Positions 41,229 through 63,556 of a stretch of DNA of 64,000 nt are shown here, piece by piece. The stretch spans positions 122,264,001 through 122,328,000 of the forward strand of contig CM097886.1 in the NCBI GenBank assembly GCA_044892525.1, in the 5' to 3' direction. The notes under the pieces are model-generated. The model saw only the letters and a program-made list of their open reading frames with translations, did not search any database and was not told the origin of the DNA. The stretch is from Schmidtea polychroa. Lineage: Eukaryota. Positions within the stretch are counted from its first letter, which is position 1. The number at the start of each line of letters is the position of its first letter. A program made the position numbers and the translations under genes.

Positions 41229-41318
41229 TGATTGGTCCGCATAAATAGAAAACTAATATATAAGCAGACACTAAAATCATAACAATTACCGTTCATCTAA
41301 CCACTACATTAGGTAAGT
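41229..41318 (+). promoter_or_regulatory. LTR promoter (inverted CCAAT, TATA) and splice donor
   Basis: GATTGG at about 41230, TATATAAG at 41257, AG|GTAAGT donor at 41313. Same elements in the 3' LTR (donor at 63975). Confidence 0.55.
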
Positions 41319-43389
41319 GTATTTTAATTAACAATGACCGTTCATCTAACCACTACATTAGAAACCAAAATTCACAGCGACAGCCACAGATTCACCGAAA
41401 TCATTTCAAGGACTATTCTAGGAATCCAGGAAAACTCAACCTATTCTAGTATTAACCATTTCTGTTCAGAACTTTTCGATTCAGCCTATTTGAAAATTTG
41501 GTAAGGGATTTTTTCATTATTTAGGTTTACCATGCAACGATCATGTATATTTATGAATTTATAGTAGTCTAAATTTAACAATAATTTTTCTCTTTTCGTT
41601 TGATTTGAAGGTTTTACTTAATTAAATGTTTTAGTAATTTGGTAATAAACGTTTTATTAGGAATTAAAGGATTTTTTATTATTTGTTGATTTTATGATAT
41701 TTAAAAATTTTGGAGAAACGTGGTGTTGAGATACTCCATGTCATGGTGTGAGGTGCCTTCGGGAGCTCAGCCGGTGGACATGGGGTCTTTTCAATCACGC
41801 AGCTGATTCGGGCCGTAATGTGGGGGCTTCCTCACGGGTCCGTCGCTGAAGGAGTGACTAAATTCTATGAAAAACTCATACGAGGAAGTAGGGTAGGAGA
41901 ATGAATCGATAAATAGGAGAAATTTTGATATGTTCGCGCAGTGATTGAGGGTGTCACACTAGCGTATTATAACAGCGTCTGATCAAGTTAAAAATCTTCT
42001 TTATCATCCAGTAGATCTAGGCAGGTCTTTCGTTAACAAAACCGTCCAACCTTGGTAGTGCTATAGTTGCCATAGTTCTCGAATTCGCTAGAAATTTAAT
42101 CTTGAAGTTTTCAGCTACCGATTTTTGCGAGATCGCTATTCCTATCGGCTATATGTCCTCTCAAGGATGAAATTGTATGAAATCGCGTAATTAAATAGGT
42201 TTAAGTAATCATTAAAAATAAAAGCGAATAACTCCAATCAGTAAAAATGTATTTCTCTAAAAAATAATTCATTAGAATAATGTTTACCCAGTAAAGCATA
42301 AAATGTCCACATCCCGTCGAGTGGAAAATCCAGCATTGGAATAAGTAATAAATCTCCAATTTGACAGCAGTAGCCGGCATACATTGATAGCGATGGAGGG
42401 CCACGAGACGAGCTGGTAAATCATATTTGAGGGATCGTGAATTAATTCCAATATTGATGATGTAGAAATCCGGTTTTTCCAAAATATCCATGAGAGATAG
42501 CAGGCAGCATTTGAGGTAGATACATGGTTCGTCAGTGATGTAATATGTCATAAGGGAAAATACATCTGCATGCATACACAGGCATAGCATAGAGCATGAA
42601 GACATCAGTCAGCGATTATGACTAAGTAGAAGTAGGTGAGAGAAAATTTTCATGCGCCATGCGCTTTAGAATAATCACAGAGGCTACTCGCAATATGTAG
42701 ATTATACAGACTGTTAATCACAGGAAATCCAACCTGACGCGTCAGCTGAAACATAATTCACTGAAACATACTACTGACAGTCACCCGATTTTCTCACCGA
42801 TCAGAAATGATAGATAGCGGCCAGACAGACATTTTGGGTACACGTGGTTAAATTCATTTAAATATTCAACTTTGTCTTAATCATTATTATTTTCTCACAA
42901 CTAAACAAGTGCAAATTAATTTAACAAACTTTTACTCATCACAACAAATAATTGTAGAGCAATTGATAGAGTCTTATTTAGGTTGAATAATTAATTTAAA
43001 GATAAATCGCCTATCCATGCATAAGATCTACACATCCAAATTATTTGTCTTGGGGTAAATCTATAATTTAATTTAAACTCTCTTTAAATGCGAGGTACTG
43101 TTTTCAGGTAAATGGATTTAATTGTAATTTCATCAACCTGTAATTTCCCTTATCCAGGATAATACCTTACTTTCCTTCGGTAAAATCTTGCATGAATGAT
43201 CCACTCTCGTATGAATAATGACCCCAAGCGTACAAGATCTGTAGGGTAACGAAATCTCTTCAGGCTAATAAACTCGTTTTGTCTGTATGATAATCTATGA
43301 TCGGTATGGTATGAGTGTGACTAGATGATGATGTCTCACATTTGCCTTAGTTTGATTTTATTCGCATTTCCTCTTCATAGCTATTCAAG

Positions 43390-44130
43390 ATGTCTTCAAG
43401 TACCAACAACATTCTTAAACCTTGCTTTTCTTGCTCGGACAAGAATTCAATTATCAGGGATCTACAAGCGCAAATTGGAAAATACAAAAGGAAGATCGAT
43501 GAGTTGGAGGGGACATGGTTTAGTCCCACGCAAATGAAAGAGACCCAAAAGAAATTGTATCGAAGCGAGCACTGTCGTGATGCTCTCATTTCCGAAAGTC
43601 GGGCACAGAGGAGCCTGATAAAAGAGCAGTCGGAAGCACTGCATAAACTATACATACAAGCGGCGACCACTAGAAAAATAGCGAAGATCCCAATTAACGA
43701 AGCCAGCAATCTCTTCCCAGCGCACCATGATACTTCCGTCAAGTTTTCGTCTCCACTCGCGAAGTCTTGCCATGGGTGTGTAGAGTCCGAGCTCTCTCCT
43801 AAAGACCCAGAGATTGTATTCACCGGAACCAGTAAGGTCCAGCCAAATCTCGCGTCCTCATCAACCATACAAACGATCACCTCCTCAAAGCCTAAGCGTC
43901 GACAGCTGTCTCGAGCTGAACGCAAACGGAAACAACGGGAACGGGCATCTGTCAAGCAGTGTACATCGTCAATCATCGCTCCAGTCAGCAATATTGATCT
44001 GACGGTGGTCGTCCCAACAACCGGGATCTCCGGGCGAGTCATCTCCGCCGCCGGGGCGACGTGGGAGGAAAACGCCGCCGAGTTCTTTAATCTGGACGAG
44101 TTACTCGCCGACTCGGAGTGGGAGAAATGA
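43390..44130 (+). CDS. LTR-encoded orphan protein, 246 aa (CxxC, coiled coil, basic NLS-like segment, acidic FFxLDE tail)
   Basis: Intact ORF. Diverged homologs at 24390-25060 and 3007-3308 indicate protein-level conservation. Acceptor upstream; AATAAA plus GT-rich tract downstream. Confidence 0.75.
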   Translation: MSSSTNNILKPCFSCSDKNSIIRDLQAQIGKYKRKIDELEGTWFSPTQMKETQKKLYRSEHCRDALISESRAQRSLIKEQSEALHKLYIQAATTRKIAKIPINEASNLFPAHHDTSVKFSSPLAKSCHGCVESELSPKDPEIVFTGTSKVQPNLASSSTIQTITSSKPKRRQLSRAERKRKQRERASVKQCTSSIIAPVSNIDLTVVVPTTGISGRVISAAGATWEENAAEFFNLDELLADSEWEK

Positions 44131-44265
44131 GGATTTCCCCGGAAAATGGCCTCCTTCTCCGTAGAGGATTGAACTTCTTCTGTTGTCGTTTTCTACCTTG
44201 GTGTTATTCAGTTCGTGTAAAATTCCTTGTATAAATTCTCTAGGTGTTTATATAGTAAATTTAAT

Positions 44266-44310
44266 AATAAAAATTTTTCGTTTATGTATGTGTTATCTTG
44301 TGTGTTGAAC
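44266..44310 (+). terminator. Putative LTR polyadenylation signal
   Basis: AATAAA at 44266 followed by a T/GT-rich tract. Confidence 0.45.
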
Positions 44311-44921
44311 TTAGAGAATAATATGAACTTGCAAATGGCACTGAGAGTTGCAGAGAATAAGGAGTATTGGTCAATTGGTAATTCCAGCTAGAAATCTTGC
44401 GATGGGCGACAAAAGGAAATGACGTAAGTCCTTCTATCGGCAGTCAGGGTTAGGAAGTCGAGGCCTCAGTAGGGAGTAGTCCGAAGGAGATGGCTCACCT
44501 GCCTACTGGCGTCTCGCCGGCATAGCACAGTTCCAACGTGAAGCGATTCACGGGTGCTATGTTGGAGGGTAGATTATGTACGGGTCCTGCTCGGCAATGA
44601 CCAGAATCAAGACGAGCGTAATCGATATGGGGCATTCATCCTCTGGACTGAAAGCGGTAATGAAGGGGGTCATCCGGGTAGTCACCCGCCAACAGAAACA
44701 GTATTTTAAAAATATCATGGATATTAATGAATAAGGGAGTAAATAAAAATATAGATTATTACTCAATTGTATTAAACTGAATTTAAATTTAACACGTTCA
44801 CCCCGGCGCGGATCACCGGTGGCCCGCACTAACCTGTCCCATCGGGCGGCGTGTACCACCGGTGGGACGTATTTGATTGTGTTGTTAGACGGTACGTAAC
44901 ATTAAATATTTAGATCTTTAA

Positions 44922-45864
44922 CACTGACTGCCGAAACAGAAGATAGTGCGCAATTTTTTATGAATATACCAAGCATTCGCGAGGGAAGTTACGAATATTA
45001 ATTGTATTACTACTTTTTGATACCATTTTTCGAGTCCATTTCAAAAATTTTACACTGCTACGATTTTCGAAACTCATAATTTCACTACGTTTTTGTTTTT
45101 GTTTTGCCTGCGGTGGAAGGAATTTTTTGTTTATTTTTTTACAGTACCACAAATAAATGTATTTTTCTCTAAAAGTTCTTCACCCAAAGTGACACTTGTA
45201 TAATAATTATTAGTAAATAATATGCGGCCCTCAAATAATAAGCCATTTAGTAATCTCATTACTACATCGTGGGAATATGATTTTTCAATGATCGTTACAT
45301 TTTTTCCGGTATAAATTTCGATATTATAAGTGTAACCTTCAGGCAAACATAATTTGTATAACTTTATGTCATACTTATGTCGCTTGCCTTGGATGTATTG
45401 ACGAAAACCTTGACGTCCTCTCCATTGAACCATACTTTTATCGATAACGATATTTTTGCCAGGTTTAATAGCACTTTTGAAAGTATCCACAATTGCTTCA
45501 ACAATTGTTGTGATATAGTTTGGGTCTATGTTGATAGTGTGGTAATATTAATTAAATTGTTATTATTATTGTTTTATTATAGTTGTGGTAAGTTTGCTGG
45601 AGAGTTTAATAGAGCCCAACCGAGTTTCCTTTAAAAAGAACTGTCTCAGGATAGCTGGGATGTTTGTTTGTAGGTTATTTTATACAAGTAACAACTAAAA
45701 TAAATACGAAATGGGTAAATTACAACAAAAAATAATATTAAACTTTCAAAACGTTTATTTAACAATAAATCAAAGACCTTTATGAAATTCACGGGAGTCC
45801 GTGGATCAGAAGGAATTGTTATTGTTGCTTTGTACTTGGATATTCGGCATGAATTTCGACGTTT
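44922..45864 (-). mobile_element. Truncated piggyBac (PGBD4-like) element
   Basis: TTAA|CACTGACTGCC end at 44922. ORF 45131-45490 reads IVIDKSMVQWRGR..RQYIQGKRHKYDIK..FTNNYYTS. The other end is lost at the LTR junction. Confidence 0.85.
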
Positions 45865-46108
45865 TCGAGGCCTCAGTAGGGAGTAGTCCGAAGGAGATGG
45901 CTCACCTGCCTACTGGCGTCTCGCCGGCATAGCACAGTTCCAACGTGAAGCGATTCATGGGTGCTATGTTGGAGGGTAGATTATGTACGGGTCCTGCTCG
46001 GCAATGACCAGAATCAAGACGATCGTAATCGATATGGGGCATTCATCCTCTGGACTGAAAGCGGTAATGAAGGGGGTCATCCGGGTAGTCACCCGCCAAC
46101 ATAATTTT

Positions 46109-46126
46109 TGGGGGCTCAGCCGGGAT
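46109..46126 (+). promoter_or_regulatory. Primer-binding site, tRNA-Pro
   Basis: TGGGGGCTCAGCCGGGAT, 16/18 identical to the canonical Pro PBS TGGGGGCTCGTCCGGGAT, 7 nt after the LTR end CCAACA. Confidence 0.88.
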
Positions 46127-46353
46127 ATACATCAATTTCAATTAATTAGCGAATGCAAATTGACTAATACTTCTCGAATCTTATTATAAAGTACGGTTAG
46201 AAAATGACGAAGTAAAGATATAAATAAAGCAAATTTAAATTTGGGAAAATAAAATAAAAGTAAAACAACTTATAACAATTCAAAAGGGAAATGTTTGCTG
46301 AAACCACCATGTATTAGCTGTATATTATTAAAATATTTTCTTTTCCAATAGAC

Positions 46354-46839
46354 ATGACAGAATCCACAGAACTGATGAAACAACTAAGCAACTTCGTTGA
46401 TATAGAAAGCGATCCCATAAAAACGCTTACCCAGAAAAGAGAGAGAATTAAGAGCATACAACTACAAACAATGGGACAAGCACCAATCGTACCTAACCAT
46501 ATGTTATTAGCCATAGGCCTAAGTCGTGCAGATAGTAAAGTGAACCATGAAACCATATATCAGTGGTATCAGGAAAGATTGAGACACCCCGCATTGAATC
46601 TAGAATACCATCGACTACGAGATCAATTAGATATTATATCCGACATAATCGAACAGAAGATACAAGAAAAGCTCACTAAATTACGAACCTGTCTGTCCTG
46701 CAAACTTCGTCCTATTCGCGTACTGTTCTTGCCCTGTGGACACCTCAGTCACTGCGAAGAATGTGTAAACGATCTAAAACGGTGCACAATATGTAAGCAC
46801 GAGATAAAAGAGACTCATATGGTTTATTATGGCGAATAA
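46354..46839 (+). CDS. IAP/Mdm2-type C-terminal RING protein, 161 aa, no BIR
   Basis: CLSCKLRPIRVLFLPCGHLSHCEECVNDLKRCTICKHEIKETHMVY at the extreme C-terminus, preceded by a short coiled coil. Confidence 0.85.
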   Translation: MTESTELMKQLSNFVDIESDPIKTLTQKRERIKSIQLQTMGQAPIVPNHMLLAIGLSRADSKVNHETIYQWYQERLRHPALNLEYHRLRDQLDIISDIIEQKIQEKLTKLRTCLSCKLRPIRVLFLPCGHLSHCEECVNDLKRCTICKHEIKETHMVYYGE

Positions 46840-47400
46840 AAGTGTTAAAGATTTAATGACATTTATGAACATCGAATTGGTACTGACGATTGAATGAGAA
46901 TAAATGTAATTGTTGTGTGAAATATTATTAAAGTCTTAATTTTATTTTTATTTTTTTTATGGCAAATAAATTCTTGTTATAAGCTGAGTAATCCATGGCT
47001 TTTAATTCTATTTTATTTTTTTTTGAATCAAACGAAAAGAGAACTAAACTAACGTGGAACTAGTCCCAATATAGGCTGTAAGGGTACAAACCGAGCCACC
47101 TTCGGGCGGTACGTTCTATCATGAGAAAAACCCATTGGGAGGGGATAACCAATCAACCTAAGTGAGGAGCGTAGGGCGGGGTACCATCGCAAATGATGAG
47201 AAGTTTCTGCGGTGTGACTGATCACCATGCCAATGCAGAAGTGGATCATCGCAATCGTCGTGCGTTTTGAGCAAGGGGGGAAAGGGAAAACACTCTCAAA
47301 CGGTAAAGATTAAGCCGACACATTAAAAACAGAGGCAGAGAAAATGACAATTTAGGGTAAAAGAGGAAAGAGAAGTAAGAGCATGCAGAGTGAGAGATAT

Positions 47401-47787
47401 TAAGACCGAGCTGTCGAAAAGTCCAGCCGGTCAGGGAAATTAAAACTGAGCTGTGAAAAGTCCAGCCAGTCGGAGATATTAAGGCCGAGCTGTTGAAAAG
47501 TCCAGCCGGTCAGGGAAATTGAAACTGAGCTGTGAAAAGTCCAGCCAGTCGGAGATATTAAGGCCGAGCTGTTGAAAAGTCCAGCCGGTCAGGGAAATTG
47601 AAACTGAGCTGTGAAAAGTCCAGCCAGTCGGAGATATTAAGACCGAGTTGTGGAAAAGTCCAGCCGGTCAGGATAATGAAGATTGAGCTGTTGAATAGTG
47701 CCAGCCAGTCGTAAGATCGAGCTGTCGAAAAGTCCAGCCGGTCAGGATAATGAAGATTGAGCTGTCGAATAGTGCCAGCCAGTCGTA
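47401..47787. repeat. About 10 tandem 39/40-bp units forming alternating 79-bp dimers in the element leader
   Basis: GAG(C/T)TG..AAAAGTCCAGCC units at 47408, 47448, 47487, 47527, 47566, 47606, 47645 and onward. Confidence 0.93.
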
Positions 47788-49096
47788 AAGGCCTAGAAAC
47801 ATAATGAGATAGCATTTAAGCTAATAGTGATGAAAGAGTATTAAAGCTAGCTAGAAAACGAATTGAAGTTGGTTACGAGAATTTGAATTTAGAGAGGATT
47901 AAACGAGCTCGTGGGAGGTAATAATGAAATCTTTTCAGTAAGAAAGAGAAACTGAAAAGGAAAATGAATTAAAGAGATAATGAAAATACAGAATAAATGA
48001 GAATAAATGATGAGTAAAAGAGGAAGGTGATTAATTAATTAAATGGGATCCCAGATAAGTAGACAAGGTTCTACAGAATTTTTTGGTTTAAACCGGTTAA
48101 ACGAATTTTGTGTTGATACAGAATAGAACCCAATAAGGGGAAATGGAGATGAAAGATTAAGTAAAATAGCGGAACCGCGTAAAAGGATTAAGAAAATATG
48201 GGAGGTAATAAGCAGCAACTGACAACGACCTATCGATATTATAAATGATAACTATAGATAATTGATACGACCATATTGATAATTGTTACTACCCCAAATA
48301 GATAATTTAAAATCGACGAAAACTATGGGTTGATGGGTAATTATACTCCACGAAGAATTGTATGGGGAAATGAAAAGGAGCATAACAGAGGCCCTAAAAC
48401 GGTGTCTGTGCTTGAATGTGGCAAAAAGGAATGATTGATTCGTGTAAGCAAATGCAACACGATATCATTTTTTCATTGTAGATATCAATCCAACCAAGTC
48501 AATTCAGAACCAGCTCAAAAGGAATCCAGAGAATATACAGACAATCCAGTAAAAGCGATTCAGAACCCGCACAAAGGAAAATAAACCCATCCGAACACGG
48601 AGGACGACAACGACATCTTTATCTACGACGGAATTATCGAAATACTTAGCATCGACGTATTAGCAGAAGTCAATCAAGGACTCAGATATCCCCTCCGGAA
48701 ATCAGCCGAGAAATTACGCGGAATATTCCTCGAAGGAAACACTATCAGCACCGAACTCGACCAATTCAGCAGCCTCTAACCGTAGAAAAATCTACGTGAA
48801 AAGACAGAAAGGAGTAAGAAAGAATCACGGATAAACCCAACCTTAGATCTTCAAGTAAGCCAGGAGACGTATTATTTTCAGGAGACGAATTACAACAACT
48901 CAAAAGAGGACGATCCATTAAACAACAAAGAGGAATATCACAAGGGGCACGAAGAACCGATCAAATACCCATATTTGACCAAGAAAATCTCGGGTACACC
49001 CCTAGTCGATCTCGAAGCAGAGAAAGTCTATCCGACATCACTAATAGTTTAGCAACGTCAACCGAAGAACTAGCAGCCCAAAGTCTAGTCACATCA

Positions 49097-52000
49097 TTGG
49101 ATAATTTAAAAGAAACAGACGAAGTTAGAACACCAATCATGACGAATGTCGTAAAGACCGACGAGTATAAAGAGAAGTTCAGAGGAGAGCCTTTCAACGG
49201 GAATGCGAACAAGTTGGCAACGTTCATAACCAATTTTGAAGTCTATATCGATGTATGTGGATGGACGTCCGAAGCAATTAGTAAACGGATGCCGTTGTTT
49301 TTATGCGATAGCGCATTAGAAGTGTACTTAGAAGCTAAAGAAAGAAATACGAAGTTAGACAATTGGGAAAGCATCAAAACATTCTTGAGGAAAACTTTCG
49401 GAGCCAGCAAACCAATAAATCAAGCGCTGAGCGAACTGGCAAGTAGAAAACAAAGAGCAAATGAATCCATAACGTTATATGCGAGTGAATTGCGAAGATT
49501 GGCAAAGAAGGCCATGAACGGAAACTTGCCGGAGGAAAATTTAATTGGTTACTTCATAGAAGGACTGCGCCGAGAAGAGGTAAGGGCCTCGGTGGGATGT
49601 CAAATGTGTAAAACACTAGAGGAAGCCATAGATTGGGCCACGAGATGCGAACTACACCTCCCGGCACAAATGAATGTCATGCAGGAGGAGGGGAGAATCG
49701 CAGCCGCAACGATAAAAACGGAAAATGGAGATAACAACAATCACGAACCAAAGATGAATCAATTTATACCGGGTGCGCATCAAATTTTCAAACCACCGCA
49801 AGGACGATCAAACGGGAATAACAGTGAACGCAACAACTCGAACAATGGGAATAATTTTAATAATCGACGAAATACGAACGATAACAAACAATGCCGAACA
49901 TGCGGTAAACCAGGACATTGGGATAGAGATTGTTACCGAAGCGCAAATTGCAATAGGTGTGGACGACGAGGACACACGGAAAATATATGTCAATTGAGAG
50001 GATGTTTTAACTGTGGTCAACCGGGTCACATCTCAAGAGACTGTCGAACAAGGAGCCAACCACAACGACCACCACAGCGAAATAATAATTATGCACCAAA
50101 TCCGCAACGACAAAGTAATCCTAGTGAGGGAAAGCAAATGAATGTGATGCAAGAGATTTCACAAATGAAGCAGATGATGCAACAAATGATGAGACCGAGA
50201 CAAGAACAAGTACCACAACAAACTCAGAATATACGTATGATGAGGAGCACCGAAAATCTCAACAATTATGAAGTGCAACAACATGCACAAGAATGGCAGA
50301 GACTACAAGCTGAAGAAGAGAGGATAAAAAGAGAGCGAATTCAGCAGCGACAAGAACAACCATTACGAATAAATATGATGAGAATGGTAAAGGAGATAAA
50401 AGAGCAATATTGTTACAATTACGGTAAAAATCCAAGAGTTGTACCTATGAGCGAACCAGAGAAACCGACAGAAACGATTACAGCAGCTAAAAAAGAAAAT
50501 CCAGCAACACCGCTAAAAGGAAATCAGAGAATTCAGAAAATATTTTGGAAAAAGATAAAAGATAAAATCGAAAGAGAAAATGAGAAAACAAAAACAGAAG
50601 CAGAAGCGATAAATGATGGAAACGAGAAACAAACTAGTCATTTAACCCATGAAATGGTACAAGAATTAGAATCAGAAGAATTAACGATATTTGAGAATAA
50701 AAAGCTCAAGAAAGTTCCAAGAATGAGAAATTTACGAATTAACATGATGAGGACGACAAAGAAGGTGTTGTCAACAGATGACGATGAGGATTATGTGAGT
50801 AGCCTTGGTGGAGAAATGTTACAGTTAAATGAAAATATCGACCAACTAAGGGAAAAGATCGGAGCAGATGAGGATGAAAGTGAAAGCGACGTAACAAGCG
50901 AAAGCGAAGACGAGAATATCGAAATGAAATTGAGAAAAGAAAGAGAAGAAGCGATAAAACAAGTAAAGGAAATACTTCCAGTGGTGGTCAGAAACCAGGA
51001 ATTCATTGACAGTATACCATACAGACGCTTCATACAAAAGATAATGAAACTAGAAAGAAACGAAAAAGACCTAATACCAAACGAGGAAAAAGCGATAATA
51101 AAGAAGTATATGGAAAAAATGAAGCAAGCAGAAACAACACGCTATGTAATAAAAATCGGAACGAGTAAAGGACTCGAGAGAATATGGATAAAAAACGCCG
51201 TTACAGACGAACTTTTCGACTGGATAAGAGAACATTTGGGCAGCTCGAGAAAGAAAGAATACCTGTATCAATATCAAGGAGAACAAATCAAACCCGACAT
51301 GCACCTAATAGATGCATTGATCTGGCCAGGAGAAACTCAAATATTGAAGTTGCATAAAGAGAAGCAACCAACAAATGTTCACGAATGGGCTAAAGACGCC
51401 AAGGCGGAATACGATTTTAATATTAAGCTGAAGTTGGAACAAATAAAACAATGCACCTTGCGACGAAATCTAGATAAATTAATCAAACAAATCCAAGAAC
51501 AAGTCGAAGACAACTGGGATTTGCTCATAGCAAGACGAACTCCAGACATGCATGAACTAATGAGCCGACTGCGCGATACAGAATTGCTCCGAATGAGTGA
51601 TTGGAGAACCATAAATTTGATCCACAAATACGGAAGATTAAAAGAAACGCAACCACAGAAGTTGGAAATAACCATATGGTTACCAAACGAGGAGAAACGA
51701 CGAATAAAAATGAGCAACCAGAGTACGGTGGACGATTTAGTATCTAAGATAAACCAAGAGATAACGGAAAGAGTCCGAAGCGAGAGCAGCGATGGTATGA
51801 TAGATGAAGGGCAAACAGACAAAATAATAGACGAATGGAATGAGTGGCTGAGAAACAACGATAGCTCATTACCAAGAACAGATAACGAGAGAAATCCGAG
51901 TTACGAAAGGACAAGAGAAGCTGGAACAATGATGGAGAAACGGGCAAAAGGGAGGCCCAAGAAGCAAGGAGAAAAACCAGAATTTAAAACCAGAGAACAG

Positions 52001-52702: not shown

Positions 52703-52713
52703 TATCAAAGAAG

Positions 52714-55700
52714 GTGTTGGCGTATTACTGTGGACAATACTCATATTCAACCCTCATATTACCTGGATTAGATAAAGAAATAGTACCTATACAACGGGAA
52801 GACTGTAAAGAGCTTTTTAGAACCGGAGCGATGAGAATCCGGGATGGAGTAACAATACACGGACAAAGCGGAATGATCAAGACGGAAAGTATCTACATAG
52901 CCAAACGGGTAAAATCAACCGATGGATCATGCAACGGAGGTACATATACGATCCGAGGAGAGGTAATATCCGGGGTAGTAGTAATCGAGTCCTACACAGT
53001 GGAGTTGAAGGAATACGAAGCGCAATTCGACGCAAATAATTATCAAATGAAAACCAACCCAGCATGCAGAGCTACGGAAAACGTATGTAGAACGGGAATT
53101 TCGACTATAATATATGAAGCCAACACCCAAAAATGCCGTCTCCAATTGTTAAAAAGTGCTTTGTTCAATGAAGTAAAAGGAGAAATTTATGAAAACGAAG
53201 ATGATGATGAAGAGAATGGAAACGTAAGGATGCGAAATGGGAAACCAGTTCCACCATCCCCCAAAGAAAAGAGACTCACAACACAAAAAACAAATACCTG
53301 GATAGCCAACGGAAGTTATATACCCCCAGATATCGTTGGACAACAAGCAGCTCTAACCATGACACAAAATATGTATCCACAGTTACCAAGTCAACCAGGA
53401 GTGAACTATATGCCAACCCGAAGAACGAAAAGCGTAGACCAAGCTGATGACGTCAGAACAATAGCAGTAATGAGTTCACCAGGAGGCGCGGCAGTAACAG
53501 TCATGATCCAAATCAACGGGAAAGAGACAAGCGCAATGATAGATACCGGAGCAAATGTATCAGCAATAGCAATAAACCAAATACCCAGTAAATATTGGAA
53601 AGATATCGAACAAACAACTATCCATATTATTGCATGCAGTAAAGAAACCGTAGACGTAGTAGGAAGATGGTGGACTACGTTACGATATCAAGATAATGAA
53701 ATTGAAACGTATCTAGCGGTGATACCCAAACTGAGCGAACCATGTATAATCGGAACGGATTTAATGCCGGAATTGTTCAAGGAAGTAGTAATCGATTTAA
53801 CAACAATGTGTCTAAAAGACAAAATGGGTAGAATATGCAAGATGAACGCAATAATTAGATGCCCGGAGAAAATAAATGTACCAGCAAAATCACAGATGAT
53901 ATGTCAAATAAAAGTGGATACAGGAATGGAAGGAGAAGCCATTTTTGAGCCAAGCAAATCATTCGAAAAACGACGAGAATTACCATTAGCAAGAGAAATA
54001 ATAACAATAAATGAAGAGGGGGAAATACCAATTAACATCACAAATTTCGAAGAGGAAGATAAGATCATATATGAAAATGAAAGATTGGGTAGATTGACAC
54101 CCATGATAGACATCGAATTGCCAAAAATCACCAATGAATCAACGAAAGCTGAAGAATTATGGATAATTGATAGCACCTTGCTAACGGAAAAGGAGAAGGA
54201 AAGACTCCAACAACTATTGATAGAATATAAAGATATATTCGCAATTTCGGATTTGGATTTGGGAGCATGTGAGGTCACACTACACGCAATACCATTAATA
54301 GACGAAACTCCAATTGCGTTACGACCATACAAACTAGCAGAGAAGCAAAAAGAGATAGCCGAAGCCGAAGTACAAAAAATGCTAGATGCACAAGTGATCG
54401 AACCAAGTTGTTCGCCATGGCAATTTCCAGTAGTCATGGTGAAGAAAAAAGATGGTACTCAGAGATTCTGTATCGATTATCGGAAACTAAATGCAGTAAC
54501 AAAAAGAGACACATACCCGTTACCAGACATCAATGAGATGTTACTTATGCTGCAGGGGGCCGCATATTTTACGTCTCTAGATCTAAAGAGCGGATATTGG
54601 CAGATCAAAGTCAAGGAGGAAGACAAAGAGAAAACAGCATTCACATTGGGCCGAGATCTATACCAATTCAGGAAAATGCCGTTTGGACTAACCAACGCCC
54701 CAGCATCATTTCAGAGATGTATGAATTTTGTCACACACGGGATCAAGCAGTGTATGGTATATATTGATGATTTATTAATATATTCAGCAACATTCGAACA
54801 ACATTTGGAAGACATTAGAAACGTGTTCATCCGATTACGACAATGGAAATTGAAACTCAAACCATCCAAATGTGATTGGGCAAAAGAAGAGGTTACGTTC
54901 TTAGGACACATAGTGTCAGCAAAAGGCAAAGAACCAGATCCAAGAAACATAGAAAAAATAAAAACATGCCCAGCACCAAAAACCGTCACTCAAGTGCAAG
55001 AATTTCTCGGATTATGCGGATATTATCGTAAATTCATTAAGAATTACGCAGGCATTGCGAAACCAATCCAGGAATTAGTGAAAAAAGATATCTCATTTAT
55101 TTGGGGTGCAGAACAGCAAAAAGCATTCGAAACACTACGAGACAAATTGATTGAAGCTCCAATACTAGTACATCCTGATTTCAAAAAACCGTTCCTGTTA
55201 GCAACAGATGCCAGTGGATATGCAGCCGGAGCAATATTAGGACAACTCGATGAGGAAGGAAAAGAAAGAGTGATCGGATATTACAGTAGAACGTTTAAGA
55301 AGCATGAGAAAAACTATTCCGTAACTGAAAGAGAAGCGTTAGCAATAATACAAGCGATTAAACATTTTCGATATTTGTTATGGGGACACGAAATATGTAT
55401 CACAACGGATCATCAACCATTGGTATGGCTCGGACAGCACAAAGAAGCTTCAAGTAGGTTGATGCGATGGGCAATGCAGTTACAAGAATATTCACCGTTC
55501 ATAAAATTCAAAGCGGGAAGAGCAAATGCCAATGCAGATTGTATGTCCAGATTTATTTTTCCAGACTTAGTAGATCACGAAATGCAACGAATATGTCTGA
55601 TGGTAGCAGAAGATTTGGATTTTTGTCAATTACGGAAAGACCAACAAGAGGATGTAGAGTTGAAACAAATAATCGAGTATGTGAAAACCGGGAAAGCAGA

Positions 55701-57138
55701 GGTATATGAGAAGGATCAAAAATTGAAAGAACATATGGATAAACATCGGCATCGATATATTATTGAGAAGGATTGGTTATTGATAATGGATGGGGAAAAG
55801 AGACTGATGTGCATCCCCGAGAATAGATGTAAAGATCTACTAACACAATATCATGATGGAAGACTCGGAGGACATATGTCATCTAAAACAATTGCTGGAA
55901 TACTAATTGCATGGAGGAACCCGATCAAAAACGATTATATGGTAGATATAAACGAAACATTTACCAAAGGAGAAAACACCTTGATGAGAGAAGCGATGAG
56001 AGGACATCACCTATTCGAAATTCCAAATCAACTACTACAACGTGGCATAAAGTTTTCAAATCACAAAGACGAACAACTAATCAGAAAACGAATTACCAAC
56101 TTCGAAAAAGCTATATCTCAATTTACCGATAAAGTACAAGTAAAATTTTGGGAAACCGTGAGTGTATTATATATGATGGAAACTATGAATAACATTCGAG
56201 AAAACTACCTAAGTATTATTCAAGTTCTAACGGCAGAGGAACGCGTTAACAGTTCGAACAAGAAAAAGATAAAAATCAAGAAAATAACAGCAAGAGAGTC
56301 TGAGAAACGAGTCGATCAAATAATAAACGATGTAGCAACAACAAGTAAACCAAAGACAATAAACTCCGACCAAGAGATAGTAGTACGTAAGGCTAAGGAA
56401 GTATTCTTTGAAGAAATGCAAGATCTATCTGATGAAGCGATACTAGCAAAAATAATAAAAACAGTACACACCTACGCAAGAGACCAGACCACAAATTTAG
56501 ACATAGGAAAAATAAAAACATTTATACCACTAGCATTCACCTTACCAACAAAAGATTCAAGAACACCATTACAACAAGCCATTCTAGCAGCAAAGGAAAA
56601 CAGAGCAATAACCATCGTAAGAATTCTTAGAGACTTCGGAGAAGAATCGAATGCAAAAAATGAACAAGGAGAAACAGCAATGATGTATGCAGCAATAACA
56701 AATATACACCCGAAAACCTTACATATACTACACCAATCAGGTTCGAGACTTGACGAAATATCAAACGAAGGAAATTCTACCATGGATTGGGCAACAATAC
56801 AACCAAACTTGGAAATGATTAGATTCATTTGTAAAAATGCTACAAGAACTGAGGTAGAAAATATCTGTAAAAATACGTCACAATTCCAGTGGGATACGAT
56901 ACGGAAAAATTTGGAAGCCATGAAGTTATTGTTAACCTGGAAAATACCACAAAGCAATAAATATGCAATAAACATAAATGAGTTCTACGAAAACGGAGAA
57001 AATGCTATGGTTAAAAATACGCTGACAAAAGGAGGAACTCCGAAAATCATAATGATCATATTGAACAGAGAAGACCTCAAATTCACGCAAAATCAAACGA
57101 ACAAAAGCGAATCGGAAAACATCGTCGAATACAATTAA
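52714..57138 (+). CDS. pol: Glycoprotein fragment + Pol (PR, RT, RNase H, truncated IN) + ankyrin repeats
   Basis: IDTGA at 53539; YIDD at 54758; ATDASG..ERE..TDH RNase H; YHDGRLGGH then loss of the IN core; GETAMMYAA and GNSTMDWA ankyrin-like repeats. Confidence 0.93.
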   Translation: MLAYYCGQYSYSTLILPGLDKEIVPIQREDCKELFRTGAMRIRDGVTIHGQSGMIKTESIYIAKRVKSTDGSCNGGTYTIRGEVISGVVVIESYTVELKEYEAQFDANNYQMKTNPACRATENVCRTGISTIIYEANTQKCRLQLLKSALFNEVKGEIYENEDDDEENGNVRMRNGKPVPPSPKEKRLTTQKTNTWIANGSYIPPDIVGQQAALTMTQNMYPQLPSQPGVNYMPTRRTKSVDQADDVRTIAVMSSPGGAAVTVMIQINGKETSAMIDTGANVSAIAINQIPSKYWKDIEQTTIHIIACSKETVDVVGRWWTTLRYQDNEIETYLAVIPKLSEPCIIGTDLMPELFKEVVIDLTTMCLKDKMGRICKMNAIIRCPEKINVPAKSQMICQIKVDTGMEGEAIFEPSKSFEKRRELPLAREIITINEEGEIPINITNFEEEDKIIYENERLGRLTPMIDIELPKITNESTKAEELWIIDSTLLTEKEKERLQQLLIEYKDIFAISDLDLGACEVTLHAIPLIDETPIALRPYKLAEKQKEIAEAEVQKMLDAQVIEPSCSPWQFPVVMVKKKDGTQRFCIDYRKLNAVTKRDTYPLPDINEMLLMLQGAAYFTSLDLKSGYWQIKVKEEDKEKTAFTLGRDLYQFRKMPFGLTNAPASFQRCMNFVTHGIKQCMVYIDDLLIYSATFEQHLEDIRNVFIRLRQWKLKLKPSKCDWAKEEVTFLGHIVSAKGKEPDPRNIEKIKTCPAPKTVTQVQEFLGLCGYYRKFIKNYAGIAKPIQELVKKDISFIWGAEQQKAFETLRDKLIEAPILVHPDFKKPFLLATDASGYAAGAILGQLDEEGKERVIGYYSRTFKKHEKNYSVTEREALAIIQAIKHFRYLLWGHEICITTDHQPLVWLGQHKEASSRLMRWAMQLQEYSPFIKFKAGRANANADCMSRFIFPDLVDHEMQRICLMVAEDLDFCQLRKDQQEDVELKQIIEYVKTGKAEVYEKDQKLKEHMDKHRHRYIIEKDWLLIMDGEKRLMCIPENRCKDLLTQYHDGRLGGHMSSKTIAGILIAWRNPIKNDYMVDINETFTKGENTLMREAMRGHHLFEIPNQLLQRGIKFSNHKDEQLIRKRITNFEKAISQFTDKVQVKFWETVSVLYMMETMNNIRENYLSIIQVLTAEERVNSSNKKKIKIKKITARESEKRVDQIINDVATTSKPKTINSDQEIVVRKAKEVFFEEMQDLSDEAILAKIIKTVHTYARDQTTNLDIGKIKTFIPLAFTLPTKDSRTPLQQAILAAKENRAITIVRILRDFGEESNAKNEQGETAMMYAAITNIHPKTLHILHQSGSRLDEISNEGNSTMDWATIQPNLEMIRFICKNATRTEVENICKNTSQFQWDTIRKNLEAMKLLLTWKIPQSNKYAININEFYENGENAMVKNTLTKGGTPKIIMIILNREDLKFTQNQTNKSESENIVEYN

Positions 57139-57143
57139 GGGAA

Positions 57144-58508
57144 TTGGTAAAAGAATGGAATAGAAAGAGACATGCAGCAACAGGAAGAAAAGAATTTGAA
57201 TTCGAAGCAAAATTAGCAAGAAATAGAGTGCTAACAGCATATCGCAGATTGTTGAACGATATAAATGTCGAGGACGACATTTTAAACGACAGCGGGGGAG
57301 ATAAAGACGATAAAGACGACAATAATGATGAAACAGGTCAAAACGGGAATGGAGAGAAAGAGGAATCAGAGGAGAATAATCAAGGGAATAACGACTCAAG
57401 TATAAAAAAGGAGGAAAATAAGCCGGGAAACCGAACAAAGGAAGAGGAGAAGACGAATAATGGGAAACAGAGGGTATGCCTACTTTTTACCAACAAGGAA
57501 ATGGAGACAAATATGATGGTAATGATACTCATACTAACAATGGTAGAAATGATAACAGCCCACGGTGGAATGAGAACGATATAGGAAGCCAAAGAAACGG
57601 AAAATAAAGACAACAATGAGGAGGAACTAAAACAAGAAAAGAAAAAGCAAGTACAAGAACAACAATGGGATCTGAAGGAGGAATGGAATCTAAAAGAAAG
57701 GTGCATACTAGGAAGATGTGTGTCGAGAGCATATCAGAGACTAGTGTTAATAAATGAAGATACAGAACCGATAACGGAAGTAAGAATACAAGAAGCGTAC
57801 CGAAATCGAGACGGGAAGAGAATAACGAAAGTCAAAGGGAAGGAGGTACACCTGGGAAAAGGAGGTGAGGTAGTGATAACGCAACTCCAGCCAAGAAAAG
57901 AACACAAAGTCTGCATTTCAAGATTAAGACCGGGTGAAGACTGTCTACAATATGTAACACAGCAACAACCTCCAAAAGAATACACAGTATGCATCTGGAG
58001 AAAAGATACAGCGAGAGAATGTCGACGATACCCTGGGAAAAGAGGGAAGAAAAGAAAAGGCAACGATGAGAAAGAGGAGGAAGAAAAGCGCAAGAAAACT
58101 AGTGAGAAATATCAAGATAATTACGTGTCAGAAGAAGAAATGGAAAAAATACAAAAAATGGCAAAGGAAGGGATCAATGAGGAAATAACGAAAATACGGG
58201 GATTGGAGAAAGGAAAAAGCCAAACAGAGAAAGATGCAGAAACAGCAAGTACAATAACAGGCAATGGAAACTCAGAGACCATCAGTGTAAAGCAGATGAT
58301 ATGGATCAGCGGAATAATAATAATCGGAGCGTTCATAACTATAACGGGGGGGACGATAAAAATAATCCGAGATAAACAACAGCGTAACAAACTCGAAATG
58401 ATCAGAGCTAGAAATTTTCAGCATCGAGTAAAACGACCAAATAATATCAAGCAGGAACAGTGGGTGGAGGCCTGGAATGCTCAGCGCCCTCCAAACTCAC
58501 GTATATAG
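57144..58508 (+). pseudogene. Polyprotein tail: acidic linker, signal peptide, FN3-like ectodomain, TM, short tail (in-frame TAG at 57582)
   Basis: ORFs 57144-57584 and 57720-58508 share one frame with only one stop between them. Signal MMVMILILTMVEMITAHG; ITQLQPRKEHKVCI and QPPKEYTVCI motifs; TM at 58296-58367. Confidence 0.6.
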
Positions 58509-58677
58509 AAAGGATTATGACTGTATATAGATTGTAAAAAGTAAGTATATAATATTTATTTATATAACAGTATTCTATATCTCTATATAAGCGCGGTATC
58601 ACTATTATATAATGATGGGGACAATTAATATAAAAATAAAATTTAGATAAGAGTTGAAAAGTGTATATAAATTAGGA

Positions 58678-59037
58678 ATGGAGCAAGGAAATAACGAAAT
58701 GAACCACAACACAGTAACTGAAGAATTATGGAAGCAACAATGTGCCGTATTAGCACAATTAGTGTCTAATTTACAAGAACAAGGATTGACGATGCAAAAG
58801 AACCTAATCGAGAGTATGAACAGAGGATTTAGTTATTTGAAAATAATTGAAGACCAGAGGTTAAAAATCGAACAAATGCACAGGGAAATAGAGAGGATAA
58901 CCCAATATAGCCGGAGATAGGAAATCGAATTGGAAAGAATGGTGGAGGAAGCAGAACAGACAGAAATAGAAGATTGGTCAGAATGGCTAATGAGTAGAGA
59001 GGAGGGCGGACACGAAGCCGACTCTTCCGAACCATAG
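58678..59037 (+). CDS. Small coiled-coil accessory ORF with one internal TAG (58918)
   Basis: ATG at 58678 after an acceptor. Coding-like Glu-rich frame continues past the TAG to 59037. Confidence 0.45.
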
Positions 59038-59122
59038 ACCAAACCTAAATTAAAATGTAAATAACTGTAAATAAAATCTCGAGCCTGTATCGATAAGAAC
59101 TATATGTATATATAATTATAGA

Positions 59123-60511
59123 ATGGATAAACGACAAAGAGAAGAGTTCAGAGAGATTGTCGAACAAGTCCGAAAATCTACAACGATCAAAATACACAAA
59201 CATGTCATGTGTGGAATATGTGAAAAGTTGTTAAAGGAACCTCACCAAACCCAATGTGGATGTAGATTATGTAAGGAATGTATCAGTGAAACAATAAAAA
59301 ATAGACCACAGTGGTGTCCGGTGTGCAGAGAGACACTAATATCGAGTTTAGAAGACACTAACGAGGATAAAGCCGCAGTGAAAGACATGCTAAATACCAA
59401 TCTGGGATGCAAAAATACCCCATGCGAATGGAAAGGAGTAATATGGAAAGTAGTGCAACATATGGGAGAATGTATGTACAAAATCGGCCAATGTGAAAGG
59501 TGCCATAAAACTATTCGGGCAAGCGAAGAAAAAGAGCATCAAAACCAGTGTGAAGAGAGATTAGAAAGATGCGAACATTGTGGAGAATTAGATACGTGGA
59601 AAAATCTCACCAGCGAACATCACAATGTCCAAGAGGAAAAGGTATGTGCAGAGTTCTGCGGTGAATGCCCGAACAGATGCAACGAAAGGGGAATAATAAA
59701 ATTAGCTCAGCACCTAAAAGAATGTGAAAAGAAAAGAATGATATGTGTGCTAGGTAAATGGGGCTGTCCAACACTATTACACCGAGGAGACCTACCACAC
59801 CACCTAATGGAAAATGTAATAACTCACGCAGAAATGTGGTCAACTGCGTTACAAGAAAGCGAAGAGAAAGTAAAACAAATGAGAATAGAGATAACATCGT
59901 TGAAAGGGTTAGTCAAAGAACTACTAGAAGAAAGAGAAGCGTTCGAAGAAGCCCGAGCTAACATAAAAATGCAAATAAATCGTATAGAAATTAGCAACAA
60001 TCAGGCCAAGGTGCTACATCAAAAGATAACAGAGATAAATCTAAACGAAGTAATGCCAACAGCACCCTACATATGGAAGATAACGGGAATAAAAGAAAGA
60101 ATACGAAAAGCAAAAACCGGAGAAGATACAAGACTAACAAGCCCCGCATTTCATTCCTGGAAAAACGGATACAAAATGAAAATGAAGGTATACCCCAACG
60201 GGGACGGAACCGGATTAGATACGCATTTTTCGATCTTCTTTATGCTCTGTAAAGGGGAGTATGATGAAATATTAGAATGGCCGTTCCAGGCAAAAATCGA
60301 TATTACTCTAATGAACAACCAAAGTATACATGAGCAAAGCTTCAAAACAACGGGGAATCAGATAGCTTACCAGAGGCCCCTCAACGAAGAAGGAGCAGCA
60401 ACAGGAGCACCGACGTTCATCTTACAACAAAGGGTAGAAGATATGGCGAGAAATGATACCGTATATATCAAGATGACGGTTCGGAGGGAAGGAAAGAGTA
60501 GAACCGAGTAA
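59123..60511 (+). CDS. TRAF: TRAF-family protein (RING, Zn fingers, coiled coil, MATH), intronless, element-borne
   Basis: CGICEKLL..CGCRLCKEC..CPVC; C.N..C.W.G..H..C fingers; MATH YIWKI..SPAF..GYKM..YPNGDG..THFSIF..KGEYD..WPF. Confidence 0.95.
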   Translation: MDKRQREEFREIVEQVRKSTTIKIHKHVMCGICEKLLKEPHQTQCGCRLCKECISETIKNRPQWCPVCRETLISSLEDTNEDKAAVKDMLNTNLGCKNTPCEWKGVIWKVVQHMGECMYKIGQCERCHKTIRASEEKEHQNQCEERLERCEHCGELDTWKNLTSEHHNVQEEKVCAEFCGECPNRCNERGIIKLAQHLKECEKKRMICVLGKWGCPTLLHRGDLPHHLMENVITHAEMWSTALQESEEKVKQMRIEITSLKGLVKELLEEREAFEEARANIKMQINRIEISNNQAKVLHQKITEINLNEVMPTAPYIWKITGIKERIRKAKTGEDTRLTSPAFHSWKNGYKMKMKVYPNGDGTGLDTHFSIFFMLCKGEYDEILEWPFQAKIDITLMNNQSIHEQSFKTTGNQIAYQRPLNEEGAATGAPTFILQQRVEDMARNDTVYIKMTVRREGKSRTE

Positions 60512-60688
60512 CCAGGGTGAATAACGTTGTATATAATAAACCTGTATATATCGGTGTATATAACCAGTAAAATAATATATAATAGTAGTATGGGAACCCC
60601 AATTACGATAATCCAAAAATAAAGCGAAAATTTGTTGAATAATAAAATTGATACAAACTGAACTTATCAATATTCCTAATTTAGAATA

Positions 60689-61735
60689 ATGACACAAGAG
60701 CAACCAACCACCAATAATGAGGGCCCAGTGACAATCAGAACTAGAGAGAAACATAAAAGGAAGTGGACTACGGTAATGTCCCAATTAGCCAACTTAACCA
60801 GAAATCACATTGAGGAGGCTAGGGAATATGAAAATAATAGATATCAGTGGACCGTAAATAACTTGAGAGCCGAAGCCGAAGCATGCAAGAGAGCCTCTAA
60901 GTGGGCGTCATTGGAAAATACCCGCCAGGAAGCACACAGTCACTACCTAAAACAATTAGTGCAGGAGGCACGAAAACGGTTGACTGATGAAAATACCAAA
61001 CGAGAAGCCGAAAAACAAAAGGAAGGGAGAAAAATGAATCACCTATTGGCGGAAGCCCGAAAATGGAAACGACAGAACAAAGAAATGAAGAAGGAAATGA
61101 AAGAATTGCCCATGAGATTAGAGTACGAGAGCGAGCAGGGTAAATGGGAGGAAAATCTAGTCATAAAGGAAGAGCTAAAACGGCTAAGAAAGATCGCGGC
61201 TCGGAGTCAAACCTGGCAGACCAAAGCCATGGAGTTTGAAAGACATTTAGCCATGAAACTCTCCATAAGAGAGCACGAGAATGCTGCGATGGAAGAATTG
61301 ATACTCCAGCAGTCAGGGCGAGTCGGGGAATTAATAAATCAAGTCACCGAGCTAAAACGAGATGTCAATGGATATCAGGGAGCTCTAGAACAAAGAAACA
61401 TGGTATTGGTGGGAAAAAATAAAAAACTAGAAAACGAAAGAAAAATGTATAACGAAAATCTCAAAAATCTGGAGATAGAAATCGAGAAATGGAAGGGCGA
61501 CGAAAAGATAAAAGAGTTTGAGAGGCAGTTAAAGGTAAAAGACGAGGAGACGAGATACCTCACCTATTTGCTCGACGAAGAACTGAACACTACCAGGGCA
61601 CTCAGAGATGAAGTTCAGGAACTGAGAGCTCAAATTCCCCAATATTACACCCCTTATGACCCTATTGCCATCCAACTACAGACAGCGGTCGAGAGCGACG
61701 AAGGATACGGGGGTCAGGAGGAAACCTTCGTATAA
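60689..61735 (+). CDS. Orphan coiled-coil protein, 348 aa
   Basis: Intact ORF, E/K/R/L heptad-rich, acceptor before the ATG. Confidence 0.75.
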   Translation: MTQEQPTTNNEGPVTIRTREKHKRKWTTVMSQLANLTRNHIEEAREYENNRYQWTVNNLRAEAEACKRASKWASLENTRQEAHSHYLKQLVQEARKRLTDENTKREAEKQKEGRKMNHLLAEARKWKRQNKEMKKEMKELPMRLEYESEQGKWEENLVIKEELKRLRKIAARSQTWQTKAMEFERHLAMKLSIREHENAAMEELILQQSGRVGELINQVTELKRDVNGYQGALEQRNMVLVGKNKKLENERKMYNENLKNLEIEIEKWKGDEKIKEFERQLKVKDEETRYLTYLLDEELNTTRALRDEVQELRAQIPQYYTPYDPIAIQLQTAVESDEGYGGQEETFV

Positions 61736-61910
61736 GGGCTAATAAAAAATTCAAAAATTGGGACGTATATCCCAAACAAAAAAAAAAAAAAAAAAATTAA
61801 TAGTACAGTAAAAGTATTTGAGGGACTGTAACCCTGTGTAAATAAAAACGATATAAATGTATAAGTATAAGTCGCACTGTAGCGCATGATTAATTGTAAA
61901 TATTATAGAT

Positions 61911-62615
61911 ATGAAGATTGAAGAGATAGTTGAACCCATGAGTGAAATAGAAGAAGGAGAGATTGTAATAGAAGTCGCAGAAACACAAATACTAAAGAGC
62001 GAATTACGAGAAGAGAAACGAGAAAACGAGAGATTAGTGAACAAATATATGGAAGACCGGAAAATGATTAAAGTATTAAAGAAAGAATGCAAAGTGCTAG
62101 GAAAAGTAAAGAGAGAAGCAGAAGAGAGAAATGAATGGCTGCAGGAACAACGAACACGAGGAAGAAATTGGGAAAGGATTGCAGCGGAATTATGGCAAGA
62201 GAGGGCAAGCTTCAAAGCAGAAGAAGTAATCCAAGACTACTGGAAAACAGAGGCGAAAGAACGCCAAACAACTATAAATAAATTAAATCAACAATTGGAA
62301 GAAAAACAAAGAGAAAGTGAAAAAATGAAAAAATGGATCCGCAAATACAAAGAAATCGAGAGACAACAACAACAACGAAACCCTCCACAAGAGAACGAAC
62401 AAGATTTCCTACAAATCGAGTTAAAAAGAAATCTCGACAAGAAACGAGAAGAAATAAGCAAACTAAAAATGGAGATAAGACACCTAAAAAGGGAAGCCCG
62501 TGAAAAGGATCGGCAATTAGAGATGATGTCGGAATTAAGACACCGGGTCATTGAAGCGGAATCTACCCTGATGAGAAATGCCGAAAATAATCCCAAAGGA
62601 GAACCATCTAACTAA
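61911..62615 (+). CDS. Orphan coiled-coil protein, 234 aa
   Basis: Intact ORF, E/K/R-rich, acceptor before the ATG. Confidence 0.72.
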   Translation: MKIEEIVEPMSEIEEGEIVIEVAETQILKSELREEKRENERLVNKYMEDRKMIKVLKKECKVLGKVKREAEERNEWLQEQRTRGRNWERIAAELWQERASFKAEEVIQDYWKTEAKERQTTINKLNQQLEEKQRESEKMKKWIRKYKEIERQQQQRNPPQENEQDFLQIELKRNLDKKREEISKLKMEIRHLKREAREKDRQLEMMSELRHRVIEAESTLMRNAENNPKGEPSN

Positions 62616-62654
62616 AAGCAATTAAAGCCAGTGTAAATAATATAATAATAATAG

Positions 62655-63266
62655 ATGTATATTAGTACAATGCGGTATGGAATCGTGATAACGGTAATGG
62701 TATTGATAAATCACCTGATGGAGAAACAACAATTAAACGCTCAACTGACAAGCATACGAGATCACCGCAATCGAAATCAAAAAGCCAAACCAGAACCTTG
62801 CCAATGCCAATACCCCAGTACAATAAAAACCAACATCCTCCACAGTATCCAGTCAACTCGGTCATATGTTAATAACGTCAGAAGTCTGTGCAAAAATCAC
62901 CCCATATGCCGAATGATGGACCGAAAAATACTCGAACAAGTCCAACACTTCGATCAGTTGGAACAACAAATACAACAAGAAGTGTTCGAAAATCCGGCCG
63001 AGACAACAGAAACACCCTCAAATAACAGCGACACCCACTACCTTCTCTACGTAGTGATCGCAGAAACTATCTTGTTATGCCTCATAACCTTCCTAAAAAT
63101 CCTCGAAGTTAAGAAAAAATGTCAGAGCTCGAAATCCAGAGCCACCGTACAAAACCCAGCCGAAATAACCAATGTTATCCAAACCACAAGCTCACCCAGA
63201 TTAAACCATAAAGAATCTCCTCAACCATCGTTCAATCGCCCAATCTACCATAACACCAGTTCGTAA
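62655..63266 (+). CDS. Orphan membrane protein, 203 aa
   Basis: N-terminal hydrophobic stretch, several Cys, second hydrophobic segment YLLYVVIAETILLCLITFLKIL. Confidence 0.68.
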   Translation: MYISTMRYGIVITVMVLINHLMEKQQLNAQLTSIRDHRNRNQKAKPEPCQCQYPSTIKTNILHSIQSTRSYVNNVRSLCKNHPICRMMDRKILEQVQHFDQLEQQIQQEVFENPAETTETPSNNSDTHYLLYVVIAETILLCLITFLKILEVKKKCQSSKSRATVQNPAEITNVIQTTSSPRLNHKESPQPSFNRPIYHNTSS

Positions 63267-63556
63267 TTGTAGCAGCAAACCCCAACCAGAACCATCAGAG
63301 TGACCAAACAATGCCAGAACTGAACTAAAAACACTATGTTGTGAAAAACTTTGTTGTGTATATAAACCATCACCATAAGTGATGCCTGCTTGGTCTTGAT
63401 TTGACCTATATCTTATTAATAAAATTTTATTGATGTTTATAATTTTGTTAATCACTATGTTATCTTTTTATGAATGTGCTTATTTTTTTCTGAGAGAATA
63501 AGAGTAACTCAAGTATGTAATTGCGGGACGCAATTTTGTCGGGTCCCCAAGTGATT

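Follow-up and report, generated by a model that had tools for sequence, protein, structure and literature searches.

Introduction

Giant gypsy-type retrotransposons with long terminal repeats (LTRs) are already known from planarians, and the element studied here, from Schmidtea polychroa, matches the available description of one of them, Burro/GYPSM1 (PMC6431247), in its domain set: a Gag with CCHC knuckles, an env-like region before the protease, protease-reverse transcriptase-RNase H (PR-RT-RH), ankyrin repeats, MATH/TRAF and accessory open reading frames (ORFs); it probably also shares the very large size. RNA of Burro rises after piwi knock-down (PMC8532177). The available part of that account says nothing on accessory-ORF expression, leader exons or an intron in the R region. 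Our literature search turned up no publication that deals with splicing of Burro or with restoration of an intron through R, with the original Burro description and planarian spliced-leader (SL) sequences, which may bear on novelty, excluded from that search. Three described systems of gene expression offer likenesses. In the adenovirus major late transcription unit a single promoter serves many acceptors through several non-coding leader exons, and there are several poly(A) sites (PMC11304566). Complex retroviruses such as HIV-1 and foamy viruses have an LTR promoter, multiply spliced subgenomic mRNAs and a short R, for which PMC12789967 reports 15-250 nt. Flatworm operons resolved by SL trans-splicing have short intercistronic gaps and an acceptor just before the ATG (PMC12582326).

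We analyzed 64,000 nt of S. polychroa DNA (assembly GCA_044892525.1, contig CM097886.1, positions 122,264,001 to 122,328,000, forward strand), hereafter the window, and give positions counted from its first letter. The LTR element runs on the forward strand from 40895 to past the right edge of the window. Its 5' LTR (40895-44694) has TG...CA ends, GAAA flanking both sides and 99.9% identity to the 3' LTR, which starts at 63557 and is contained as far as 64000, including exon 1 at 63950-63974 and the donor at 63975. The original prediction, made from this sequence alone, held that every accessory ORF has a TAG splice acceptor just before its ATG, that the LTR has a TATA box and one strong donor, and that subgenomic mRNAs are made either by cis-splicing of an LTR leader or by host SL trans-splicing. 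Our results favor the former: with a probability of roughly 0.7, one LTR promoter with a two-exon, ATG-free leader and two donors serves an AG acceptor at each ORF, and the leader is cis-spliced to each of them.

Promoter, leader exons and donors

The promoter head at 41231-41264 (forward strand, like the features below unless stated) consists of an ATTGG box of the CCAAT type and TATATAAG at 41257. The combined CCAAT-TATA-donor pattern had 766 matches in the genome and none in the control. Promoter heads alone numbered 497 on the forward strand genome-wide (control 0), and 386 of these had AGGTAA at the expected position. Leader exon 1 (41288-41312, 25 nt) begins 31 nt past the TATA T and is the likely transcription start and R region, the start being placed by the edge of a repeat and an extra G described below. 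Intron 1 (41313-41361, 49 nt) opens with the donor GTAAGT and ends with an exact copy of exon 1 (41337-41361) terminating in TAG, with a 24-nt spacer between the two copies. Leader exon 2 (41362-41500, 139 nt) has no ATG and ends at a second donor, G|GTAAGG at 41500/41501, which was used in the spliced copy L190. The TATA box and the strong donor AG|GTAAGT at 41312/41313 were therefore predicted correctly, and the restriction to one donor was not. Across the family, 41 of the 56 leader types have a GTAAG(G/A) donor 3' of the repeat (11 have none and four are too short to judge). The leader exons contained three ATGs against 33 expected in 15 of 25 types, those in which the second donor could be anchored.

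A doubly spliced LTR

Splicing from both donors is recorded in a genomic copy. A search for exon 2 adjoining the LTR ORF gave 31 matches, of which 30 were retrieved, and one of them, L190, is a complete LTR of ~1875 nt in which the TATA box, exon 1, exon 2 and the LTR ORF are contiguous, both introns missing exactly at GT/AG. Exon 2 of L190 ends where four relatives (L230-L233) show GATAA/AATAA|GTAAG, and the following base is the first base after the YAG in L230, L233, L234 and L150. Since U3 precedes the start site in L190 and this copy extends to the terminal CA of the LTR, it appears to have been made by the element's own reverse transcription, most likely from an RNA spliced at both introns; a chance deletion would need exact hits on both splice sites. 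The LTR ORF is reached here from the second donor; the single donor of the prediction serves the 49-nt mini-intron of the window copy. We are nearly certain that the LTR ORF mRNA is made by cis-splicing. In the window this ORF (43390-44130, 246 aa; 43378-44130 with its acceptor at 43380) is followed by AATAAA at 44266, and the acceptor is YAG in 16/16 types. Its Arg/Lys-rich stretch at 43890-43950 also occurs in L190. No element match was found in the 30 kb upstream of L190. A search from the TATA box to the LTR ORF had 395 matches, and among the 30 loci checked none had the promoter head adjoining the ORF.

Acceptors in front of the ORFs

Acceptors were compared across 20 loci for the 3' cassette and 16 loci for the 5' part of the element, counting distinct 30-nt upstream types where the ORF start was recognized. 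All seven predicted TAGs were in place, with gaps of 2, 2, 1, 4, 2 and 0 nt to the ATGs at 46354, 58678, 59123, 60689, 61911 and 62655, and 9 nt ahead of the LTR ORF ATG at 43390. TAG occurred within 0-4 nt of 42 of the 512 ATGs in the element and at 6-16% per site in shuffled 40-nt upstream sequences, and the six sites, chosen after the fact, exceed this null with a joint chance of 7e-7. YAG was found 0-9 nt from the start in every type of the RING (11/11), TRAF (9/9) and LTR (16/16) ORFs and of the three ORFs downstream of TRAF (10/10, 8/8 and 6/6). At five of these six ORFs TAG was swapped for CAG, and the gap to the ATG varied, which together argue for a splice acceptor and not a stop codon.

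The RING ORF (46354-46839; 46349-46839 with its acceptor at 46351) kept YAG at a gap of 2 nt and has AATAAA at 46835, 46899 and 46965. The first ORF of the 3' cassette, at 58678 (58673-58920 with the weak acceptor at 58675), has 80 codons in the window and 119 in most copies. The TRAF ORF, with RING and MATH domains, follows at 59119-60511 (acceptor 59121), a 348-aa ORF at 60682-61735 (acceptor 60684) and a 234-aa ORF at 61906-62615 (acceptor 61908, TAG in all eight types), the latter two with no Pfam match at the cut-off. The last ORF (62663-63266) has a hydrophobic N-terminus, a late hydrophobic segment and AATAAA at 63418. Here just six of the 14 copies mapped retain the predicted TAG at 62654, and a YAG at 62665, 4 nt before Met 62670, was present in all 14 and replaces it as the acceptor. 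The prediction of a TAG acceptor at every accessory ORF accordingly stood for most of them, the exceptions being this ORF and the 58675 site. ORF 58140 was considered as a counter-example and rejected, the ankyrin frame continuing into it in L041 and L042.

Intercistronic gaps in the 3' cassette of the window copy are 169, 202, 177, 175 and 39 nt, a slightly wider range than the 39-177 nt first given, and four of the five contain AATAAA, as had been noted for several. These signals lie mostly 20-70 nt ahead of the next acceptor. The gaps before the LTR ORF, RING and gag are 1.6-2.2 kb, beyond the 300-nt operon limit. AATAAA or ATTAAA follows 8/8 ORF ends, poly(A) use being predicted only.

gag acceptor and a probable ACG start

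An acceptor at 48481, upstream of gag, was present in 14/14 copies examined and is followed by an ATG-free leader (48479-49138 with the acceptor). In the 507-687 nt after the acceptor these copies had one ATG in total against 108 expected, and ATG made up 1 of 57 NTG triplets with A at 41%. The conserved acceptor and ATG-free leader indicate that gag-pol expression probably also requires a splice. The gag frame is conserved for ~104 codons 5' of the first ATG (48827-49138), opening with an in-frame ACG at 48827 that has A at -3 and G at +4 in all 14 copies. Of the 17 variable columns within its first 36 codons, 12 are third positions; one copy has an internal stop and another a shorter open frame. 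This region is likely a non-AUG N-terminal extension of gag. A TAG situated 10 nt ahead of the gag ATG was dropped as a candidate acceptor, not being conserved.

The exon-1 repeat and a proposed renewal of intron 1

We gathered 115 distinct LTR heads, mostly with the donor-containing pattern and hence as a biased sample, of which 92 had the donor and a second exon copy, 23 did not, and none had three copies. The 92 two-copy heads represent 56 leader types, the two copies being 99% alike within one LTR and leaders 55% alike between types. Copy-to-copy identity is 0.89-1.00 at -24 to -1 and falls to 0.38 at the first intron base, a sharp edge. The repeat unit, equal to intron 1, measures 44-54 nt; YAG closes the leader in 53 of the 56 types. 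A G immediately precedes copy 2 in 19/54 types, compared with 0/54 for copy 1 and 8.8% G in the spacers (P 8e-8, inflated by kinship of the types). For HIV-1, insertion of a C opposite the cap by reverse transcriptase, giving a G at -1, is proposed in 10.1101/2024.12.04.626847.

These patterns lead us to infer that, during strand transfer, the capped and spliced 5' end of the packaged RNA is the source from which copy 2 is rewritten. The packaged RNA would have lost intron 1 and retained intron 2, and strong-stop complementary DNA (cDNA) comprising exon 1 and U5 would pair, at the RNA's unspliced 3' end, with the second copy of exon 1, rewriting that copy and renewing the donor in every replication cycle. 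Regeneration of intron 1 is in our judgment highly probable. Pairing with the first copy instead would yield donor-less LTRs, and 12 of 30 non-duplicated heads equal exon 1 plus exon 2 of a two-copy relative with 0-1 mismatches over 35 nt. These joins fit such pairing, and plain collapse of a tandem repeat would look identical.

Three further observations concern the leader region. In the L144 LTR the leader directly abuts TATATAAG and the usual 23 nt between them are gone, an arrangement that transfer of a +1-starting cDNA end to the wrong G would produce. In 8 of 56 types (L078, L081, L082, L087, L103 and L111 among the loci) GTAA directly follows the second exon copy, making an AG|GT like that of a ratchet point. 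Exon 2 contains, at 41475-41486, the reverse complement of the LTR start (40899-40912), with 13-14 of 14 positions paired in 22/29 types (G-U allowed) and at most 12 in control scans; this pairing could join both RNA ends and aid strand transfer over a 25-nt R.

RNA contigs

Contigs X1, X2, X7 and X3, the first three presumed to be RNA, were aligned to the 3' cassette and 3' LTR. Among the 15 of 39 joints listed none was GT..AG, and among the 21 of 651 loose ends listed none lay at an acceptor with the leader or a foreign leader. Contigs can lose 25-nt tips, so this result is neutral on the junctions. A drop in X2 depth after the leader was set aside, because ends cannot be mapped from contig depth.

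Cis-splicing and its alternatives

Cis-splicing is thus supported directly for the LTR ORF, by L190, and indirectly for the first donor, by the homogenized exon repeat. The same leader is likely cis-spliced to RING, gag-pol and the ORFs of the 3' cassette, and each of the mRNAs probably has its 3' end at an AATAAA of its own. A full-length RNA must pass all internal poly(A) signals, so any downstream acceptor should be reachable with the capped leader. With the signal mostly so close ahead of the next acceptor, termination at gene n would compete with splicing into gene n+1 in the 3' cassette. We consider it probable that the cassette ORFs are reached by cis-splicing, because the donors work, full-length read-through must exist and an SL-supplied ATG would mostly be out of frame.

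This last point concerns the other mechanism originally put forward, host SL trans-splicing, in the form of an operon-like 3' cassette combined with cis-spliced 5' ORFs. The 39-202 nt gaps, with AATAAA near the next acceptor, fit the 300-nt flatworm operon criterion, and the same acceptors often serve both cis- and trans-splicing (PMC12582326); SL trans-splicing has moreover been reported in Schmidtea (PMC10899757). Flatworm SLs, however, end in ATG (PMC12582326), an ATG that would be in frame in no more than 7 of the 52 upstream types counted for the six non-LTR ORFs (a weak argument, the types being related), the element has an upstream cis donor of its own that works in L190, and the listed contig ends, which can lack 25-nt tips, included no SL-like end. 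SL trans-splicing gained no support from our analysis, and we regard it as unlikely for the cassette. Less likely still is that the cassette AGs are used with a 5' partner other than the LTR leader, reached from internal promoters or donors. The AT-rich gaps do contain TATA-like words, and the LTR leader would have to skip 17-21 kb with several poly(A) signals, a demanding step, but a conserved YAG beside the ATG requires a splicing partner, and inspection by eye identified no conserved internal donor or CCAAT-TATA head in the cassette.

Exon 1 might instead act as a private spliced leader, joined in trans to polycistronic RNA of the same or other copies. It is short and would be capped, with a strong donor and then a U-rich spacer downstream of it. 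L190, in contrast, retains exon 2, as an ordinary cis product of two introns does, the element has no Rfam match (0 across 40800-64000), and the spacers share no fixed Sm-like word by eye, and we think this very improbable. That the TAGs near the ATGs reflect chance, or stop codons for termination-reinitiation, is hardly credible: AT-rich DNA does supply TAG at 6-16% per single site, but the joint chance is the 7e-7 given above, CAG takes its place in several subfamilies with a varying gap, and the upstream ORF does not stop at this TAG.

Several results count against cis-splicing to every ORF. A leader-ORF junction is present in DNA for one of eight acceptors, that of the LTR ORF, and L190 is a single copy (1 of 40 scored among 509 candidates) in an LTR region where imprecise deletions occur in L197, L230 and L232. 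Searches for other joined copies, run for acceptors other than 61908 and 62665, returned six matches for exon 1 to TRAF (control 2, none leader-like), none for exon 1 to gag, 11 for exon 2 to RING, TRAF or 60689-type starts (control 16) and two for exon 2 to gag, both outside the element; for the RING, gag and TRAF-type starts no DNA junction is expected, since those splices delete the primer site. The 58675 site is AAG in 6/8 types and TAG in 2/8, pyrimidine tracts at the 3' cassette acceptors are weak (30-65% Y), and TG is depleted generally in the gag leader (observed/expected 0.21). X1 contigs read through the acceptors at 60684 and 61908 without a splice, a pattern that genomic RNA or DNA would also produce. 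Near exon copy 2 we identified no conserved poly(A) signal for the RNA 3' end. Given the kinship of the subfamilies, independence is overstated by the type counts and P values.

The element and its family

Downstream of the 5' LTR, a primer-binding-site-like motif at 46109-46126 is presumably of the tRNA-Pro type. The gag, env-like, PR-RT-RH and ankyrin region (49139-58508) is in pieces (49139-52702, 52831-57138 and a tail to 58508), with AATAAA at 58635. Pfam matches comprised Gag (retrotrans_gag) with CCHC zinc knuckles, protease, reverse transcriptase, RNase H and ankyrin repeats (Ank_2); the env-like region between Gag and protease matched Monjiviricetes_fusion (E 4.6e-5, 22 bits, below the 27-bit cut-off). 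The RING ORF matched zf-C3HC4_3, and the MATH domain of the TRAF ORF matched TRAF-mep_MATH. No Pfam match to integrase was found in the window copy, which is decayed, with a fragmented polyprotein region and an ORF 58678 shorter than in most copies. A BCL2-like motif had no Pfam match, its GGW word being seen by eye only, and the late Gag-side region had no PDB match. The family is large, with 1147 candidates for one accessory protein.

On these sequence features the element is best classified as a Burro-like giant gypsy-type LTR retrotransposon, "-like" because the polyprotein of the window copy is in pieces without an integrase match. It differs from Burro/GYPSM1 in that TRAF is a separate downstream ORF and in that the window copy is broken, whereas the described element has one continuous polyprotein with integrase. 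Against a size mark of ~30 kb or above for Burro/GYPSM1, the LTR-to-LTR distance is 22.7 kb here and ~26 kb in relatives, plus an LTR of ~3.8 kb.

The stretch after the 5' LTR (44695-46101) holds a ~1170-nt copy of DNA flanking the 3' LTR and, ahead of the primer site, the LTR's final 237 nt once more, and is a local rearrangement or assembly feature of the window copy. It includes a minus-strand ORF (45131-45433) that may be a piggyBac fragment. Outside the element, a hAT-type transposase ORF of 883 aa (DUF4371, Dimer_Tnp_hAT) lies at 19222-21873. Elsewhere in the genome, ~20 LTR-head-containing units form a tandem array with 2.8-kb spacing (G000:C2:173675937-173732351).

Implications

Whether all parts combine into an adenovirus-style unit, with all eight ORF starts served by one leader and alternative polyadenylation, a spliced packaged genome that rebuilds intron 1 through the duplicated exon as R, and an ACG start for gag, is in our estimate an even call. 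Adenovirus, being a DNA virus, need neither preserve a full-length RNA nor restore an intron via reverse transcription, and poly(A) use in the present element is a prediction. Complex retroviruses package unspliced RNA, whereas the packaged RNA proposed here would be spliced at intron 1; the element's gag-pol also seems splice-dependent, and one ORF lies inside U5. Flatworm SL operons differ in that this element has a working cis donor upstream and that no SL junction was seen among the listed contig ends.

The predicted junctions are given to the base, and the model is directly testable on planarian long-read or cap data. If true, it would explain how seven cargo genes, including apoptosis- and ubiquitin-related ones, are expressed from one promoter. 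The element would also depart from the rule that LTR retrotransposons package their RNA unspliced and lose any intron that is spliced, since its intron 1 would survive reverse transcription by design.

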